A DNA stretch of 37,948 bases from a virus (Duplodnaviria > Heunggongvirae > Uroviricota > Caudoviricetes): the IMG/VR virus record IMGVR_UViG_2939162341_000002; one strand, given 5' to 3'. Every line of letters begins with the position of its first letter. Within the stretch, counting starts at the first letter, position 1. Shown here piece by piece: positions 5,162-36,664 of the stretch. The notes under the pieces were generated by a model. It did no database searches, was not told the origin of the DNA, and worked only from the letters and a program-made list of their open reading frames with translations. The translations under genes were made by a program, and so were the position numbers.

Positions 5162-6121
5162 ATGATAAAAAAACCTGTGATTGGGATCAGCGGTTGTTTG
5201 GGCGGTTCTGCTGTTCGTTTTGATGGTGGTCACAAAAGAGATGACTTTTTAATGGACAAATTAGTGGAATGGGTAACATTCAGACCAGTATGTCCGGAAA
5301 TGGCTATAGGGCTGCCAGTTCCGCGTCCTGCTCTACGACTTGTGCGCTCGAAGCAAGGAAATATACGGATGTGTTTCAGCCACGACCAGAATGAGGATGT
5401 GACAGAGAGAATGACAGAGTTTAGTCGTTCTTATATGGACAAATTAAAGGATGTATCGGGGTTTGTGGTTTGTGCTAAATCTCCCAGCTGTGGCATGGAG
5501 CGCGTGCGTGTCTATGGTGAAAATGGTAATCGAGGTCGTAAAGATGGAGTGGGACTATTTACGAGCACTTTGATGGAAAAGTTTTCCTGGCTACCGGTTG
5601 AAGAGGATGGGCGATTACATGATCCAGTGCTTCGTGAGAATTTTATTGAAAGAGTTTTTGCTTTGCATGAGCTCAATCACCTTTACAAGGAGAAATTATC
5701 AAGAAGAGAGTTATTAGCTTTTCATAGTCGTTATAAGCTTCAGTTGTTGGCGCATAGCCAGGCAGGCTATAAAGATATGGGACCATTTGTGGCTGCAATA
5801 CACGAGTGGGCGGACCTTGAATCATACTTTGAGGTGTATCGTGATAATCTGATGGCGATTCTCAGAAAACCAGCATCACGTAAAAATCACACGAATGTGC
5901 TGATGCATATACAGGGGTATTTTAGTAATTACTTAAGTACACGCCAGCGTAAAGAGTTGAGCGAGGTTATACTTAACTATCGCTTTGGCACATTGCCTCT
6001 TCTTGCGCCGTTGACTCTGCTGAAGCATTATCTGGGTGAGTATCCTAATGATTACTTGCTTACACAGAATTACTTCGATCCCTATCCGGAAGAACTGGCT
6101 CTAAGACTGATGGTGAATTAA
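5162..6121 (+). CDS. DUF523 (TudS-like thiouracil desulfidase fold) fused to DUF1722 (YbgA-like) protein
   Basis: N-terminal Cys motifs typical of DUF523 (GISGCLGG, VCPEMAIGLPVPRP, KSPSCG); C-terminal half resembles YbgA (NHTNVLMHIQGYF, LPLLAPLTLLKHYL); strong RBS AGGGGGAGGA 2 nt upstream of the ATG. Confidence 0.7.
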   Translation: MIKKPVIGISGCLGGSAVRFDGGHKRDDFLMDKLVEWVTFRPVCPEMAIGLPVPRPALRLVRSKQGNIRMCFSHDQNEDVTERMTEFSRSYMDKLKDVSGFVVCAKSPSCGMERVRVYGENGNRGRKDGVGLFTSTLMEKFSWLPVEEDGRLHDPVLRENFIERVFALHELNHLYKEKLSRRELLAFHSRYKLQLLAHSQAGYKDMGPFVAAIHEWADLESYFEVYRDNLMAILRKPASRKNHTNVLMHIQGYFSNYLSTRQRKELSEVILNYRFGTLPLLAPLTLLKHYLGEYPNDYLLTQNYFDPYPEELALRLMVN

Positions 6122-6527
6122 CTGTATGCGATATCATCTGAAAGTGATGAGTTCCTGTATGCAGGATATTTACAATCGTAAAAACTACGCTATGATGCTC
6201 ATAGTGTCAGTTTTTATAAAAATCCTGTTCACGCTAAAGAAAACATTGAGATGCAATTTAATGTTGGTAAACATACCAGCCCCAAACGATTTTATTCAAT
6301 CTGTTTTTATATGAAGATATTTCAAGTGAATATTAAGAGCATATAATATTATTATTGCACGCAGCTATTATAATATAACAGATTAGTTTAATGATTTGTT
6401 TTTTGTGAGTTAAACACATGGTTTTATAGTTGTGATGCAATGAGATTTTCCTTATTGTTGAACTGGCGAATATTGATTTTCCACCTATACTTACCTGGTG
6501 TAACCCCAATGATATCAGGTGGATAAT

Positions 6528-7241
6528 ATGCCATACATATGTTCTATCATTTTGGTGTTGAACTCGTTTGGTGTCCGAATTGGTAAAGAAGATATTTTGT
6601 TTAAAAAAGGAAATGCTGTCCTCATTGAATACAATTTAAAAGATCTTTTTTCGTCAAATACAGATCATCTAATGATCGTAGATGTTGAGGAGAAAACAGT
6701 TAATGATTTCTTTAAAAACTACACACTCTCACCTTTTTCTGTAAGAAGGTTTTATCCGTCATACTTGATAGTAGAATGTGAAGATTTTTCATTGTTAAAG
6801 AACTTGGTTGCATGCTTGAATTGTGATAGCAAAACCGTGGATGTAGTTAGAAATCAAATATCACTTGCATGTCTTGCTGTCTTATCTTCAGAGAAAATAG
6901 TGCAAAGTTTTTTGTTCGGAAGTCTTAATAACTTAGGTTGTAAAGTTAAGGCTATTATTCACTCGGATATCTCAGCGTCATGGAGACTTTGTGATATATC
7001 TTCAAGATTATATATGAGCGAGAGTTTGTTAAAAAGAAAATTAAAAGACGAAGGATTATCGTTTAGTAAATTAATTCTTGAAGAACGAATGATGATGGCG
7101 CAAAGATTATTGATCTACAGTAACCATACTGTCGGCAAGGTGGCGGGAATATGCGGGTATGACAATGCATCATATTTTGTAAGTGTTTTTAGAAGATATT
7201 TTGGTGTGCCTCCGCACCAATATTTATCAAGATTTTCTTAG
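6528..7241 (+). CDS. AraC/XylS-family transcriptional regulator (AppY/PatE-like), AT-rich
   Basis: C-terminal AraC-type HTH region (MAQRLLIYSNHTVGKVAGICGYDNASYFVSVFRRYFGVPPHQY); N-terminus resembles AppY-type prophage regulators; visibly AT-rich. ORF-finder start is GTG at 6519; ATG at 6528 has RBS AGGTGG. Confidence 0.8.
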   Translation: MPYICSIILVLNSFGVRIGKEDILFKKGNAVLIEYNLKDLFSSNTDHLMIVDVEEKTVNDFFKNYTLSPFSVRRFYPSYLIVECEDFSLLKNLVACLNCDSKTVDVVRNQISLACLAVLSSEKIVQSFLFGSLNNLGCKVKAIIHSDISASWRLCDISSRLYMSESLLKRKLKDEGLSFSKLILEERMMMAQRLLIYSNHTVGKVAGICGYDNASYFVSVFRRYFGVPPHQYLSRFS

Positions 7242-10770: not shown

Positions 10771-11172
10771 TCTGTTTATAGCATTAGCATCAATTTCTCA
10801 TCAGATGCTATTCAACAATACAAATTACCCATAAACCTCGTTTTTACGGGGTTTTGTTATATTTAAACATTACCGAATAGGTATAAATCTCGATTGTCGA
10901 TGGTATTGGTTGTGTGACAATACCTAGTCTTTTCGGTATGCCTGAAGAGAATACAAACGACAGATTATGTAAGGGAAACGCGCTGAATCTTTCACTCTTT
11001 CATGCTGAGTGATTTGACGTTATATTTTTAGCCGTAAGTGAAGAGCAAACGCATGGAGCGACAAAATGCATAAAGATCAATACACTGATGCCCCCTCCCA
11101 GGAGCAGGTTCGTGTAAAAACTATGCTTAATAGCACCATTTCTGATCCTACCCACGTAATATGGACACAGGC

Positions 11173-31150: not shown

Positions 31151-31161
31151 GTGGGGTGAAT

Positions 31162-34100
31162 ATGGCAGTAAAGATTTCAGGTGTACTGAAAGACGGTGCA
31201 GGTAAACCGGTACAGAACTGCACAATCCAGCTGAAAGCAAAACGTAACAGCACCACGGTGGTGGTGAACACGGTGGCATCTGAAAATCCGGATGAAGCAG
31301 GGCGTTACAGCATGGACGTTGAGTACGGTCAGTACAGCGTTATTCTGTTGGTGGAAGGATTCCCGCCGTCACATGCCGGGACCATCACCGTGTATGAAGA
31401 CTCACAACCGGGTACGCTGAATGATTTTCTCGGTGCCATGACGGAGGATGATGCCCGTCCGGAGGCACTGCGCCGCTTTGAACTGATGGTGGAAGAGGTG
31501 GCGCGTAACGCGTCCGCAGTGGCACAGAACACGGCAGCCGCGAAGAAGTCAGCCAGTGATGCCAGCACATCTGCCAGTGAGGCGGCAACCCATGCGACTG
31601 ATGCTGCAGATTCAGCACGTGCAGCCAGCACGTCAGCCGGACAGGCCGCGACGTCGGCTCAGGAGGCTTTTTCCAGCGCAGGAACGGCATCAGCAAAAGC
31701 CTCTGAGGCATCAAAAAGTGCTGCCGCTGCAGAGTCCTCAAAAAGCGCGGCGGCTACCAGTGCCGGTGCGGCGAAAACGTCAGAAACGAATGCTGCAGCG
31801 TCACAAAAATCTGCAGCCACTTCTGCATCCACCGCGACCACGAAAGCGTCAGAAGCTGCCACCTCAGCCCGGGATGCGGCGGCCTCAAAAGAGGCAGCGA
31901 AATCATCAGAAACGAACGCATCATCAAGTGCCAGTAGTGCAGCTTCCTCGGCAACGGCGGCAGGAAATTCCGCGAAGGCCGCAAAAACGTCTGAGACGAA
32001 TGCGGATAACAGCGCACAGGCGGCAGCAGACTCACAAACTGCATCGGCAAACTCCGCGACAGCAGCCAAAAAATCAGAAACCAACGCGAAAAATAGCGAG
32101 GCAGCAGCAAAGAGCAGCGAAACAAACGCTAAAGCCAGCGAAACTAATGCTAAATCCAGTGAAACAAACGCGGCGAAATCTGCGGCGGACGCACTTAATT
32201 ATCGCAACCAGGCGCAAGTAATTGTTGGCGATAATATCGGTCTTGGTGAAGTTGCCATGACCTGCACTGATATCTCTGTTGAGCCATCAGGTTATATTGG
32301 ATTTGTCAGGATTTACATCTCAGCGAAAGGTTATCCATCAGTAGCGTCTAGTGCCGGGGATAATCTTATTTCTGGTTATATAGTTAGATCAGAAGTGTCA
32401 ACAAAAAGATATTCCGGTCTATTTGTTGGTTCAGATACAAAATCATTGTATTCGTACATTTACAGCCAAAGTTCTGGCCCGCAATGGATACGTCATACCC
32501 GCAGAGATGAATTAAGCCGCTTTGGTCAAAATGAATCAACAACTCGTATGTATGGTCCAACTGGTGATCGTTTCTTTGAAATCCATACTAACGGGAGTTG
32601 GGGGGTTTATGATTCTTCTTCTGGACAATGGTCTCCGTTAGGTTTAGCCCAGGGCGGTACTGGTGGAAGAACTATCGAGCAAGCACGTGCGAACTTGCGG
32701 GTAATGTATGAGCAAAAAGCTGGCCTTGCTAATACTGACCTAAACACCCTTACCGGTGAATATTCTGGTTTCTATCAACAACCAACGAGCGCTTACGCAA
32801 CAGAAGAATTAAATTACCCAATCGGTCTGGCGGGCGCTTTAATAGTGCTCCAAACGAGAGCCAACACTGCTTCTTCCTGCGTTCAGGTGTACTACCCTTA
32901 TAATAATCCGGGAATTACTTATAGACGAATATATGAAGGAGGTAGCGGTACCTGGTCTGAATGGAAGAGAGATGTATCAACAGAAAGGGTTGAAGAGGGA
33001 AAAGAAACAACTTACGTATATTCTACGTATTCTTCAGGCGCACCACGCTTACAGGTTTCCAAATCTGGTTTGTGGGGTTGTCATAATGGCACTGGCTGGT
33101 TGCCATTAGCTGTTGGGCAAGGAGGTACAGGTGCGACAACAGTAGAAGATGCGCGAAACAACTTAAGTCTTGGCGAAAGTAGCGCAGTTAAATTTAAAAA
33201 CCTTACTTTAACCGAAGCGCTCGACACGACATTAGGACTGCTTACAAAAACAGGACGAGACTGGAACACGCAGCATACTGATAACATTAATAAATTTATA
33301 CCAATTGCAGGCAGTACAAACGGCCCGGCAGGTTCTATGGTTCTTGGCGGCATTCATGTTCAATTTAGTAAAAATTATGCTGTGCAGTTCGGAGGCCGCA
33401 ATTCCGGTTTTTGGGGAAGAACAATTGAAAATGGAACGACGCAGGAATGGAAGAAATTACTAACAGTAGACGATCTCAATTCATCTACCGATCTTGCTGT
33501 CAGGTCATTAACCACATCTAACCCGGTAAAATCTGGCGGAGGGCGAATTGATGTCCTTGGAAGCACGTCAGACTATAGCAAAATGGATTGCTTTGTACGT
33601 GGGTTTGATAGCACCGGTAATTCTCTCGCGTGGGCGTTGGGTTCATCAGTCGGCGTAAGTAAGATGCTGTCGCTAAAAAATTTCTTTAGCGGAGCTGAGA
33701 TACTGCTAAATGGTAATGACGGCGCGGTTCAACTCAAAACAGGTGCTGTTAACGGGGCTAAAGCGCAGGCGCTCACTATCAACAAGGATGAGGTTAACTC
33801 AACAGTTGATTTAACCCTTACAAAACAATCAGGGACTGGCAATCGTTTTGTTTTACAGAACTTAGGTAATACAGAACTATCATTTGCCGCAAAAGTATGG
33901 GGATCAAGTGATCGACAAAACGTTTTTGAGGTTGGAACGTCTGCTGCATATCTGTTTTATGCGCAAAAAACATCAGCAGGCCAGTTGTTTGATGTAAATG
34001 GCGCTATTAATTGCACAACGCTGAATCAGTCATCAGACCGCGACCTTAAAGACGATATTCTCGTTATCAGCGACGCGACGAAAGCAATCCGTAAAATGAA

Positions 34101-34467
34101 CGGATACACCTACACGCTCAAGGAAAACGGGATGCCTTATGCTGGCGTTATTGCACAGGAAGTAATGGAGGCGATACCAGAAGCTGTGGGATCGTTTACT
34201 CATTATGGTGAAGAGTTGCAAGGTCCGACCGTTGACGGCAACGAGCTACGCGAAGAAACTCGCTATCTTAATGTTGACTACTCCGCCGTGACGGGTTTAC
34301 TTGTTCAGGTCGCCCGTGAAACAGATGATCGCGTTACCGCGCTGGAAGAGGAAAACACAACGCTACGTCAAAATCTGGCAACAGCAGGCACCCGGATCAG
34401 CACTCTGGAAAATCAGGTAAGCGAACTGGTTGCACTTGTCGGGCAGTTAACAGGAAGCGAACATTGA
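31162..34467 (+). CDS. stf: Side tail fibre protein (StfR-like N-terminus, Ala/Ser-rich repeat shaft, C-terminal intramolecular chaperone domain)
   Basis: Starts MAVKISGVLKDGAGKPVQNCTIQLKAKRNS like K-12 StfR as recalled; long AS-rich repeat region; C-terminal region (SDRDLKDDILVISDATKAIRKMNGYTYTL...) resembles peptidase S74-type chaperone domains. Confidence 0.88.
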   Translation: MAVKISGVLKDGAGKPVQNCTIQLKAKRNSTTVVVNTVASENPDEAGRYSMDVEYGQYSVILLVEGFPPSHAGTITVYEDSQPGTLNDFLGAMTEDDARPEALRRFELMVEEVARNASAVAQNTAAAKKSASDASTSASEAATHATDAADSARAASTSAGQAATSAQEAFSSAGTASAKASEASKSAAAAESSKSAAATSAGAAKTSETNAAASQKSAATSASTATTKASEAATSARDAAASKEAAKSSETNASSSASSAASSATAAGNSAKAAKTSETNADNSAQAAADSQTASANSATAAKKSETNAKNSEAAAKSSETNAKASETNAKSSETNAAKSAADALNYRNQAQVIVGDNIGLGEVAMTCTDISVEPSGYIGFVRIYISAKGYPSVASSAGDNLISGYIVRSEVSTKRYSGLFVGSDTKSLYSYIYSQSSGPQWIRHTRRDELSRFGQNESTTRMYGPTGDRFFEIHTNGSWGVYDSSSGQWSPLGLAQGGTGGRTIEQARANLRVMYEQKAGLANTDLNTLTGEYSGFYQQPTSAYATEELNYPIGLAGALIVLQTRANTASSCVQVYYPYNNPGITYRRIYEGGSGTWSEWKRDVSTERVEEGKETTYVYSTYSSGAPRLQVSKSGLWGCHNGTGWLPLAVGQGGTGATTVEDARNNLSLGESSAVKFKNLTLTEALDTTLGLLTKTGRDWNTQHTDNINKFIPIAGSTNGPAGSMVLGGIHVQFSKNYAVQFGGRNSGFWGRTIENGTTQEWKKLLTVDDLNSSTDLAVRSLTTSNPVKSGGGRIDVLGSTSDYSKMDCFVRGFDSTGNSLAWALGSSVGVSKMLSLKNFFSGAEILLNGNDGAVQLKTGAVNGAKAQALTINKDEVNSTVDLTLTKQSGTGNRFVLQNLGNTELSFAAKVWGSSDRQNVFEVGTSAAYLFYAQKTSAGQLFDVNGAINCTTLNQSSDRDLKDDILVISDATKAIRKMNGYTYTLKENGMPYAGVIAQEVMEAIPEAVGSFTHYGEELQGPTVDGNELREETRYLNVDYSAVTGLLVQVARETDDRVTALEEENTTLRQNLATAGTRISTLENQVSELVALVGQLTGSEH
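31525..32200 (+). repeat. Low-complexity Ala/Ser/Thr-rich tandem repeat region inside stf
   Basis: Reiterated SETNA(K/A)(S/A)S-type units in the translation; produces multiple overlapping spurious ORFs on both strands. Confidence 0.8.
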
Positions 34468-34640
34468 TATCCTTCAAGCCCTGAAGGAGGCTGTTCCTGG
34501 TACGTTCAGACTGTTGTTGAGCTGGAAATCGCAACGGAGGAAGAAACTTCGTTGCTGGAAGTCTGGAAAAAGTATCGGGTGTTGCTGAACCGTGTTAATA
34601 CATCAGTAGTACCGGATATTGAATGGCCAGCACTGCCGTA
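34468..34640 (+). pseudogene. Remnant of a tail fibre assembly gene (tfa C-terminus), in frame directly after the stf stop
   Basis: Translation ...[39 protein letters not shown] matches the conserved Tfa C-terminus as recalled; no start codon or RBS of its own. Confidence 0.7.
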
Positions 34641-34738
34641 GGGTAAAACATATAAATTCTATAATTAGATGTATCTTTCCATTTACGGCAAGGAAGGGGG
34701 CTTGGAAGACGTAAAGCATCTCACACCGAGATTATTTT

Positions 34739-35329
34739 TTATATGTCAGGTGTCTGAAGTTTTGCTTTGGCTCTTAAAATGGTTTGCCGCGAGGTTTTGA
34801 ATTCCCGGGCAATGGCACTTATACTTACACCTGACTTAATTCGTTCGAATACCACCTGTTTCTGTTCTTCATTTAACACAGGTGGTCGACCAAAACGTTT
34901 CCCTGCGCCGCGGGCTCTTACTATCCCGGAATGAGTGCGTTCAAGTAAAAGGTCTCGTTCAAATTCAGCGACTGCTGAAATTACTTGCATCATCATTTTT
35001 CCTGTTGGACTGGTCAGGTCAATGCCACCCAATGCTAAGCAATGCACTCTGATACCTGTTTCGGTCAGTTGTTCCACTGTTTTCCTGATATCCATTGCAT
35101 TACAACCAAGGCGATCCAGTTTTGTCACAATCAATTGATCACCACATTTCAGGCGAGCAAGCAACCGGTTAAAACCAGGACGCTCACTGGTTGCTGCTGA
35201 GCCGCTAATGTGTTCTTCGATTATTTGCTGAGGTTTGATTTTAAAACCTGCACTTTCGATTTCCCGGCGTTGATTTTCGGTGGTCTGATCCAGCGTTGAT
35301 ATCCGACAGTAAGCAAAAATTCGAGACAT
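34739..35329 (-). CDS. Serine recombinase (resolvase/invertase family)
   Basis: 196 aa; N-terminal catalytic motif (YCRISTLDQ with Ser nucleophile, KLDRLG); C-terminal HTH ([20 protein letters not shown]); occupies the Pin-invertase position next to the tail-fibre genes. Confidence 0.88.
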
Positions 35330-35645
35330 AGTGAGACTCTATACGAAATTGGTGTTCATATCATAATGCATCTCAGAAAATAATTATGATTATTTTTGTG
35401 CATATTTGTATGTACACGTTCGAAAATAAACGAATGCGTATGCAACCCCGTAATTTTGGTGAGACCCAAAATCGATTTTGTGAAAAATGGCTTTAACTCG
35501 GTTTGTTTTTCGAGTTCCGGGCGGACTCAAGGAAGAAGAATAGTGTTGCGTGTTATTTTAACCAGATTTCAAGTTGTTTGGTCGTGGAAAAGTGGAGCAA
35601 AATGTTGTTAAAGTGGAAAAATGATAAAAAAGTAAGTTTATTATA

Positions 35646-35879
35646 TTACATTTTACCATTTAAATTTTGGTTGTCTTTAAGAACTGATATCGCTGTTTGT
35701 AATAATTCTTTGTTATCCAGCCATGATTTTTTCTTTATGTTTCCTTCAATGTAATCAAGCAATGTTCTGGTATTGATAGGTCTTCCCTGTTTTGCTACTT
35801 CCACTACAGCATCCCCTAGGATAATTCTTACTTCAGGAAGCTGCGCAGGGAACCACTTTAGGGTGTCTTTTGATTTCAT
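35646..35879 (-). CDS. ydfK: YdfK/YnaE-family small protein
   Basis: 77 aa from the ATG with RBS AAGGA (MKSKDTLKWFPAQLPEVRIILGDAVVEVAKQG...); matches my recollection of K-12 YdfK; the ORF extends 11 codons upstream without an RBS. Confidence 0.7.
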   Translation of the reverse strand: MKSKDTLKWFPAQLPEVRIILGDAVVEVAKQGRPINTRTLLDYIEGNIKKKSWLDNKELLQTAISVLKDNQNLNGKM

Positions 35880-36664
35880 GAAGATATTCCTTAAAATATT
35901 ATTGATTTTCATTGCGATATTGTATGTCTGATTCAGGATATGTTGACTTATACATCGGTTTTGTCTGGGTTATTGGATATGCCAATCCCTAATTTTATTA
36001 GGGCATGACTAAAAATGCTGAATATGATAAGGAGAGATGTGATTATCAGTATGCTGTTCATATAGCCTCGAATTAGTAATGTGTTATATATGATATAGTT
36101 GACAATTTTTATCTTGGGTGTTCTTAAAGTTCGTAGATAAACATTGTCGTTTCAGGTATACAGGAATGCTAACAGGTGGCAGCAAAAATCAGGCGGTTTA
36201 TGGCGCAAGCTGAAGCGGCAACTGCAAACTATCTTATGCAGAGACTCTACACGGATTGGGTTTAAAAGTATACATAGATAACAGTTTTTATCTGAAAAAG
36301 AAAAATATCAAGGTGATATAGCCTATATGCCTTTGATGCGGAGGAATGAATGTGATGGGAGTGATGTATCTGAATAGTTGAAAAACCGCAGACACGCCTT
36401 ATGCAAGAACGTGCTGCGGTTGGCTGGTAAATTTTTCGATAGTGTGAGTATTGAATGATTTCCAGCCGTTCTTGATTTTACGCATAAATCCATGAAAAAA
36501 CTACTTATCTGTTGGGGAGTTTTTTTGGGGCATATATGGGACAGAAATAGGCCCCAGATAGACACTGAGATCGAACTTAGGATGCTTTTTAAAAAATGCA
36601 ACTATCTGAAAAAACCTAGAAAACGCCAAGGAAACCACAGGATGGGAAAAAACACCTGTGAATT

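Follow-up and report, generated by a model that had tools for sequence, protein, structure and literature searches.

pinQ of a lambdoid prophage as a probable relic resolvase within a decayed Tn3-family mini-element

The DNA considered here, IMG/VR virus record IMGVR_UViG_2939162341_000002, is a 37,948-nucleotide stretch (the window) that corresponds to the right arm of a full-length lambdoid prophage and carries pinQ, a small serine recombinase gene with no obvious partner site. The open reading frame (ORF) at 34739..35329 on the minus strand was confirmed, and its 196-amino-acid product contains the Pfam domains Resolvase (PF00239, E = 2.5e-36) and HTH_7 (PF02796, E = 3.8e-11). This product is identical to K-12 PinQ at 194 of 196 residues, the other two being different, while the 316-bp spacer between ydfK and pinQ is 100% identical to that of K-12 Qin and the prophage is integrated at ydfJ, as for the K-12 PinQ locus. 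Since both the near-identical protein and the prophage context (tfa - pin - ydfK/ynaE) are those of E. coli PinQ and PinR, the ORF can be identified as pinQ, an already known E. coli prophage gene, in its usual place. Along the right arm the gene order is J, lom, stf (1103 amino acids with an S74 chaperone domain), a C-terminal fragment of tfa, pinQ, ydfK, ynfT and a 5'-truncated ydfJ. Strain AR_0077 has an identical locus, in which pinQ is annotated. PinQ (b1545) and PinR of the K-12 cryptic prophages Qin and Rac share with the window the 194/196 residues, the spacer and the neighbours tfa, ydfK, ynfT and truncated ydfJ; the window differs in that its prophage is full length (J, lom and the 1103-amino-acid stf with S74) and in that only a C-terminal fragment of tfa is left. 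As set out below, it is likely that pinQ is a hitch-hiking relic, the resolvase of a decayed mini-Tn3 element, with no target in cis and probably little catalytic power.

The gene lies within an 834-bp, transposase-less Tn3-family mini-element at 34696..35529, the anatomy of which is well supported. Decayed copies of the terminal inverted repeats (IRs) of about 38 bp, of the form GGGG...TAAG, face each other across pinQ. The right repeat (IRR, 34696..34730, plus strand, GGGGGCTTGGAAGACGTAAAGCATCTCACACCGAG) matches the family IR, GGGGTCCGCTTGGAAAACGGAAA(T/A)TATCCCACGCTAAG, at 27/35 positions with a 3-nt deletion, and begins 8 nt past the pinQ stop codon, exactly as in the plasmid pS84, where the IR scores 37/38. 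The left repeat (IRL, 35491..35529, minus strand, TGAGTCCGCCCGGAACTCGAAAAACAAACCGAGTTAAAG) matches the canonical IR at 24/38 positions and the IRL of pS84 at 27/38 by hand count. Outside both repeats stands the same pentamer, AGGAA, at 34691..34695 on the IRR side and at 35530..35534 on the IRL side, a perfect 5-bp duplication of the kind typical of Tn3-family transposition. These ends can also be found without prior positions. When both strands of the entire window, about 76,000 positions, were scanned blind with four reference IRs, the IRL ranked first and the IRR second. The same IR relics and duplication (TTCCT/TTCCT) are common to K-12 Qin, Rac-type copies, a variant that keeps arginine at codon 76 (L033) and the viable phages Tritos and Kati. 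Because ends and duplication agree in all copies examined, they indicate one ancestral insertion between the fibre genes and attP/int. The adjacency of pinQ to stf and tfa would therefore reflect a transposon insertion into the phage b-region and not a fibre-switching module.

No tnpA lies within the element: just 48 bp separate the IRL from the first recombination subsite, of which the first 18-20 nt resemble the 3' end of tnpA in full-length relatives and the remainder matches pS84 only, and weakly. Tn3-type ends with a target duplication and no transposase are also found in TIMEs and mobile insertion cassettes, which are non-autonomous Tn3 derivatives bounded by Tn3-type IRs without tnpA, and this implies mobilisation in trans. 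The element in the window differs from these in that res and the resolvase gene are its sole cargo, and it has an intact counterpart of 852 bp. This is found on the E. coli plasmid pS84-1 (L030 4786..5637), with good res sites, Arg76 and IRs of 29/38 and 37/38; its 38-bp Tn3-type IR (GGGGTCCGCTTGGAAAACGGAAAATATCCCACGCTAAG) starts 8 nt after the stop codon, and a second copy faces it upstream of res. The 5-bp flanks of the pS84 element do not match each other (TTAGC vs AAGGA). On the IRR side it is bordered by AGGAAGA, which is similar to the phage target sequence and hints that the plasmid element may derive from a phage-borne copy.

The relatives of PinQ point in the same direction. When one genome was scanned for each species, relatives with 59-78% identity came up in Shewanella, Erwinia, Photorhabdus, Budvicia, Mycoavidus, Sphingobium and others, and tblastn placed homologues on 1858 plasmid records. 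Over all relatives the identity spans 59-84%, with plasmid pS84 at 83% in amino acids. The closest homologues adjoin, and diverge from, a Tn3-family transposase. For example, at three loci (L013, L016 and L019) the PinQ relative is divergent from a large ORF with the Pfam domains DDE_Tnp_Tn3 and/or DUF4158, and on plasmid pAA-ST131 (L031) an ORF annotated as 'Tn3 family transposase' ends 160 bp upstream of the relative. On this arrangement the PinQ family can be assigned to the TnpR resolvases of a group of Tn3-family transposons. Like the TnpR proteins of Tn3 and gamma-delta, to which it is about 30-35% identical (an estimate by eye from the printed alignment), PinQ is a small serine recombinase with HTH_7, and its relatives share with those systems a tnpR divergent from tnpA with res between them, overlapping the promoter; terminal repeats of 38 bp (GGGG...TAAG) and a 5-bp target duplication are common to Tn3-family elements. 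The relatives differ from Tn3 and gamma-delta in having a site I of 26 bp (12+2+12), a site II of 32 bp and a site III made of two direct half-sites, and the window differs further in lacking tnpA, in its eroded res and IRs and in a cysteine that replaces Arg71. In NCBIfam no family reached its cut-off with PinQ; the top match, the Mpi invertase family, gave 85 bits where 272 are required. At one of the relatives, in Photorhabdus cinerea (L015, about 5253), a Tn3-type IR (37/38) lies within the 3' end of the PinQ-like gene and the C-terminus diverges from there, which suggests that the end of another element cut off the HTH domain of that resolvase.

Knowledge of intact members can be used to read the eroded DNA upstream of pinQ. 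In nine relatives the half-site TGT(A/C)CGAAA recurs at fixed offsets from the ATG. Site I is an inverted pair at -115/-101, 26 bp long, with the sequence TGTCCGAAAyCGrCCGGTTTCGGACA; site II is an inverted pair at -75/-55 that spans 32 bp; and site III consists of two direct copies at -37 and -24 around a conserved TATAAT. These six half-sites have the layout expected of a resolvase-type res overlapping the promoter of the gene. A half-site matrix was built from 39 half-sites of the relatives (44 were collected, including a second Erwinia copy), on which real sites score at least 10.8 bits. The recognition helix of PinQ (TSRQTIL) is almost unchanged from that of the relatives (TTRQTIL), and PinQ should therefore prefer the same TGT(A/C)CGAAA-type half-site. 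An unusual back-to-back layout was seen in Erwinia oleae (L017 1268..2652), where 203 bp with a mirrored double set of res half-sites separate two divergent genes for PinQ-like resolvases (72% and 78% identity to PinQ).

In the window an intact multi-subsite res is absent, and relics stand in register. BLAST homology to Tn3-type loci runs through pinQ up to about 35408, and multiple alignment places the subsites. The relic of site III (35340..35364, plus strand) lines up with the direct half-sites that the nine relatives have at -24 and -37 and overlaps a conserved -10 element, TATGAT (35360..35365, minus strand); its proximal half, TATACGAAATTG at 35340..35351, scores 12.0 bits and its decayed distal half, TGTTCATATCAT at 35353..35364, scores -5.1 bits. 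The 32-bp relic of site II (35371..35402, plus strand, TCTCAGAAAATAATTATGATTATTTTTGTGCA) aligns column for column with the inverted site II of the relatives, with a left half of 4.0 bits and a right half of 1.7 bits. The 26-bp relic of the crossover site, site I (35417..35442, plus strand, CGTTCGAAAATAAACGAATGCGTATG), aligns with its 26-bp counterpart and scores 5.9 bits in its right half and -1.8 bits in its left. Five of the six half-sites thus fall between -5 and +6 bits, and only the promoter-proximal one reaches the level of real sites. The alignment forms a graded series of erosion, from pS84, in which all sites are intact, through L033, a prophage variant in which site I is changed and sites II and III are mostly good, and the P0009 variant, to the most eroded form, that of the window and K-12. 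A promoter scan gave one weak promoter-like match (35416..35389, minus strand); a terminator scan found none between ydfK and pinQ, and Rfam had no match in that spacer.

A second site on which PinQ could act was also sought. No good inverted half-site pair is present in the 38-kb window, where the best pair scores 17.7 bits compared with about 32 for a real site I, and the relics of sites II and I still rank 6th and 9th among such pairs. There is no cognate partner site for PinQ within the window, and the claim of the first-pass annotation that the recombinase is an orphan without a partner has held up.

That annotation had also pointed to two palindromes upstream of pinQ as possible binding or crossover sites. 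Both are present, each one base to the right of the coordinates first given (35453..35472 for 35452..35471, and 35417..35436 for 35416..35435), and their fates differ. The second, CGTTCG-AAAATAAA-CGAATG, has arms complementary at 5/6 positions. Because 35417..35442 takes the position of site I in the alignment, this palindrome can be read as the eroded crossover site. The first, ATTTTGG-TGAGAC-CCAAAAT, lies 124 bp upstream of the pinQ ATG, in the 48-bp spacer between the IRL and site I. As a recombinase site it was rejected: it falls outside res, the family matrix gives its two arms -35 and -31 bits, and the search for further copies turned up none in the window at two mismatches or fewer. It overlaps a perfect 14-mer, CAAAATCGATTTTG (35467..35480), so that the two together occupy 35453..35480. 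The site II relic holds a further perfect palindrome, AAAATAAT-TATG-ATTATTTT (35377..35396), with 8-bp arms. The enrichment of palindromes in the ydfK-pinQ spacer is real: perfect palindromes whose arms reach 7 bp or more number four in the 316 bp, overlapping one another, where 0.37 are expected, and only 8 of 1000 dinucleotide-shuffled sequences had as many. One such palindrome on its own would be unremarkable, since 24% of shuffles contain at least one, and RNA folding of both palindromes is unremarkable as well (z = -1.1, +0.2, -1.1). The first palindrome is not strictly kept, one arm being weakened in each of three loci (L010, L024 and L033). In L033 and L011 a C..G pair of the 14-mer has become A..T, so that its symmetry stays perfect.

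On the premise that a Pin invertase next to stf/tfa in Rac and Qin flips the adjacent fibre segment, pinQ had been taken for a Pin/Gin/Hin-type invertase whose invertible segment has been replaced and which would bind, or cross over at, the palindrome at 35453..35472. The premise is mistaken. Only e14, with PinE, has a segment bounded by inverted pix sites, and K-12 Qin has the order stfQ-tfaQ-pinQ with no inverted copy. PinQ does share with the Din invertases (PinE of e14, Gin, Hin, Cin) the fold of a small serine recombinase, the vicinity of tail-fibre genes and, in intact members of its family, a 26-bp crossover site. In addition to the adjacency of stf/tfa, the Din-type reading could draw on searches of PDB sequences, in which Gin (105 bits) comes slightly above gamma-delta resolvase (83 bits, with gamma-delta/Tn3 resolvase at about 82 bits). 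It is nevertheless extremely improbable and largely refuted. Members of the Din family (Gin/Hin/Cin/PinE) are about 60% or more identical to each other, whereas PinQ is 38% identical to PinE, and its close relatives are Tn3-family resolvases. These relatives carry accessory subsites II and III for resolvase-type control, where Din invertases use a remote enhancer. The Din core (AAACCNNGGTTT) is absent from the stf-pinQ region, its sole match with one mismatch lying at 10833 where 1.44 are expected by chance, and no pix site and no segment bounded by inverted 26-bp crossover sites (..AAACC NN GGTTT..) adjoin pinQ. The polarity of the first palindrome, read from the sequence, is TTTGG..CCAAA, opposite to the AAACC..GGTTT of gix and pix half-sites, and it has no second copy. 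Finally, pinQ is bounded by Tn3-type IRs and a duplication. The sole sizeable inverted repeat around the gene is a perfect 14-nt one, 33271..33284 (CAGCATACTGATAA) and 36043..36056 (TTATCAGTATGCTG), which brackets the 3' end of stf, pinQ, ydfK and part of ynfT; by estimate, about 0.07 such repeats would be expected by chance in the 6.3-kb stretch. The junction predicted from inversion at this repeat occurs in 0 of 5426 complete E. coli genomes.

The protein itself has also changed. In HMMER and MAFFT alignments the motif LDRLGC of PinQ aligns with LDRLGR of resolvases, which places Cys76 at the position of R71 in Tn3/gamma-delta resolvase. Codon 76 (35102..35104) reads TGT where relatives have CGT or CGC for arginine, and a single change, CGT to TGT, accounts for the substitution. 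Among the best 120 protein clusters, 112 have arginine at this position, and cysteine is found only in the PinQ/PinR clusters and one sister cluster. The full catalytic set (Y6, R8, S10, D36, R68 and R71 in Tn3 numbering) is incomplete in PinQ: the counterparts Y7, R9, S11 and R73 are present, E39 stands at D36, a position that is glutamate family-wide, and R71 is missing. Olorunniji and Stark (PMC2794168) count R71 among six Tn3 resolvase residues whose mutation abolishes recombination; R71A/K mutants gave no recombination, with cleavage reduced about 1000-fold or more. With its recombination sites eroded and cysteine in place of Arg71, PinQ therefore lacks a cognate site to pair with in the window and probably catalyses recombination poorly, and we infer that its catalytic and resolution functions have been lost.

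Sequence evolution gives a similar picture. The ratio of nonsynonymous to synonymous substitution rates (dN/dS) is 0.35-0.4 between cysteine-bearing forms and about 0.15 between arginine-bearing forms, from small counts. Frameshifted copies of pinQ are present in two genomes, Shigella flexneri (L023) and E. coli ECGI0523 (L024), at 6001..6591; with about 93% DNA identity and 10-11 in-frame stop codons, these point to pinQ being a pseudogene in some lineages. Together, the higher dN/dS and the frameshifted copies suggest that constraint on the gene is relaxed, though not absent.

It may alternatively be proposed that res has co-evolved with the protein and is not dead, so that PinQ, or PinQ with a host factor, binds altered symmetric sites I and II, where it would resolve phage or prophage multimers or autoregulate its promoter. 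The excess of spacer palindromes (4 vs 0.37 expected) would fit this, as would the symmetry that remains at homologous positions (perfect 8-bp arms at site II, 5/6 at site I), the kept promoter-proximal half-site (12 bits), the conserved -10 between sites II and III and a dN/dS below 1. However, the recognition helix is essentially unchanged while five half-sites have lost their CG core, and core positions are no better kept than they would be without constraint: compared with pS84, 39/54 of them are retained, vs 30/49 spacer positions. Resolution would also need a second res copy, of which there is none in the window. Cys76 counts against this reading as well. A living, re-shaped res is for these reasons very unlikely.

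The evidence can be assembled into a history, the order of events in which is our inference. A Tn3-family transposon would have lost its transposase gene to leave an 834-bp mini-element made of IRL, 48-bp spacer, res, tnpR and IRR. An ancestral lambdoid phage would have received this mini-element once by transposition, in the non-essential region that separates the tail-fibre genes from ydfK, with AGGAA duplicated in the process, and Qin, Rac and related phages would have carried it as a passive passenger since then. The resolvase of intact relatives is predicted to bind the six TGT(A/C)CGAAA half-sites, arranged in three subsites upstream of its own gene, to resolve cointegrates by crossover at the 26-bp site I and probably to repress its own promoter. 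In the window, where the res sites are eroded to the point that only the promoter-proximal half-site scores as real, the terminal repeats are eroded as well and Cys stands for the catalytic Arg71, PinQ would be a relic in slow decay and could act today, if at all, only in trans. The fallback offered by the first-pass annotation, an inactive relic, fits the evidence best.

Several observations nonetheless weigh against this reading. The unoccupied target site, with its flanks joined over one AGGAA (...GGCAAGGAAGAAGAAT...), is found in 0 of the 5426 genomes, and the insertion is deduced from the IRs and the duplication alone. About 2600 records carry the ORF uninterrupted and with 99% identity or more, and dN/dS is still below 1. 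Dyad symmetry persists at sites I and II, perfectly so at site II, and could mean continued binding by a dimer. Lastly, Kirigo et al. (Nucleic Acids Research (NAR) 2025, PMC12529663) found that inversion of the P segment in e14 rose from about 30% to 88% when PinQ was over-produced and that deletion of pinQ sensitises cells to T2, which argues for some activity.

These last results would be accommodated if PinQ were an active invertase working in trans on the pix sites of the e14 P segment, giving a chimeric StfE2 that blocks T2 adsorption, with the local palindromes irrelevant. The same study (PMC12529663) saw inversion of the P segment in T2 survivors, and the effect was gone in stfP, stfE and e14 deletions. 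However, in a pinE single mutant the P segment is locked (PMC12529663), so that native PinQ alone does not invert it. PinQ also lacks the R71-equivalent arginine, no pix half-site exceeds 3.9 bits on the family matrix, and the e14 pix site (TTGGTTTGGGAGAAGG) has no match in the window at three mismatches or fewer. Moreover, a bias of 88:12 would not be expected from the equilibrium of a simple invertase. A complete e14-type P segment is present in 284 complete E. coli genomes, vs 2732-2873 with the pinQ element, and with so rare a target trans-inversion cannot be the general role of pinQ. An active trans-acting invertase is thus unlikely. Kirigo et al. (PMC12529663) make no reference to a relationship with Tn3, to res or to the Arg/Cys position.

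A related possibility, quite unlikely in our judgement, is that PinQ and PinR are domesticated, catalytically attenuated resolvases that lambdoid phages keep for a non-catalytic role, such as DNA binding or partnering PinE-like invertases, and that bias inversion switches in other prophages. If true, such a role would account for the published anti-T2 phenotype despite Cys76 and the requirement for pinE.

While pinQ itself is known, no description of its transposon origin or of its catalytic defect was found in the open-access literature. A full-text search of that literature with the half-site sequences, and with 'Tn3 family' and pinR, returned only primers and resistance surveys. About half of the complete E. 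coli genomes (2873 of 5426) have the element. Annotations call its gene 'DNA invertase' or 'recombinase family protein', and a 2025 paper offers it as the founding recombinase-activated anti-phage system. A resolvase that sits in a decayed mini-Tn3, with an eroded res and one of six primary catalytic residues gone, alters how that anti-phage result can be read. A mini-Tn3 origin also gives a clean explanation of a long-standing 'orphan' recombinase, and from the relatives a res layout can be defined, with a 26-bp site I, a 32-bp site II and a direct repeat as site III, for a family of resolvases found in abundance on enterobacterial plasmids.

Some features of the neighbourhood can be added. 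To the left of the element, the side tail fibre in the region 31156..34641 ends in a C-terminal Peptidase_S74 intramolecular chaperone domain and is followed by only the last 40 or so codons of tfa, a tail-fibre assembly gene; this C-terminal fragment (34516..34641, plus strand) is labelled partial in AR_0077. Since stf ends in the S74 domain and only the tail of tfa remains, a self-chaperoning fibre module would have taken the place of an stf-tfa pair, with the tfa tail left over. A partial match to the Rfam family IS009 overlaps the fragment (34500..34607, plus strand, 91 bits, E = 7e-21, model positions 92-199 only); with a longer stretch as query it drops below the gathering score, and it probably merely reflects the truncated tfa 3' region. 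To the right of the element lies ydfK, which encodes a cold-shock protein (35646..35879, minus strand), followed by ynfT and the truncated ydfJ at the prophage end. Between these last two genes, near the prophage end, there is a weak match to CssrB, a Shigella small RNA family, at 36281..36418 (plus strand), with 25 bits and E = 0.016 against a gathering score of 76.

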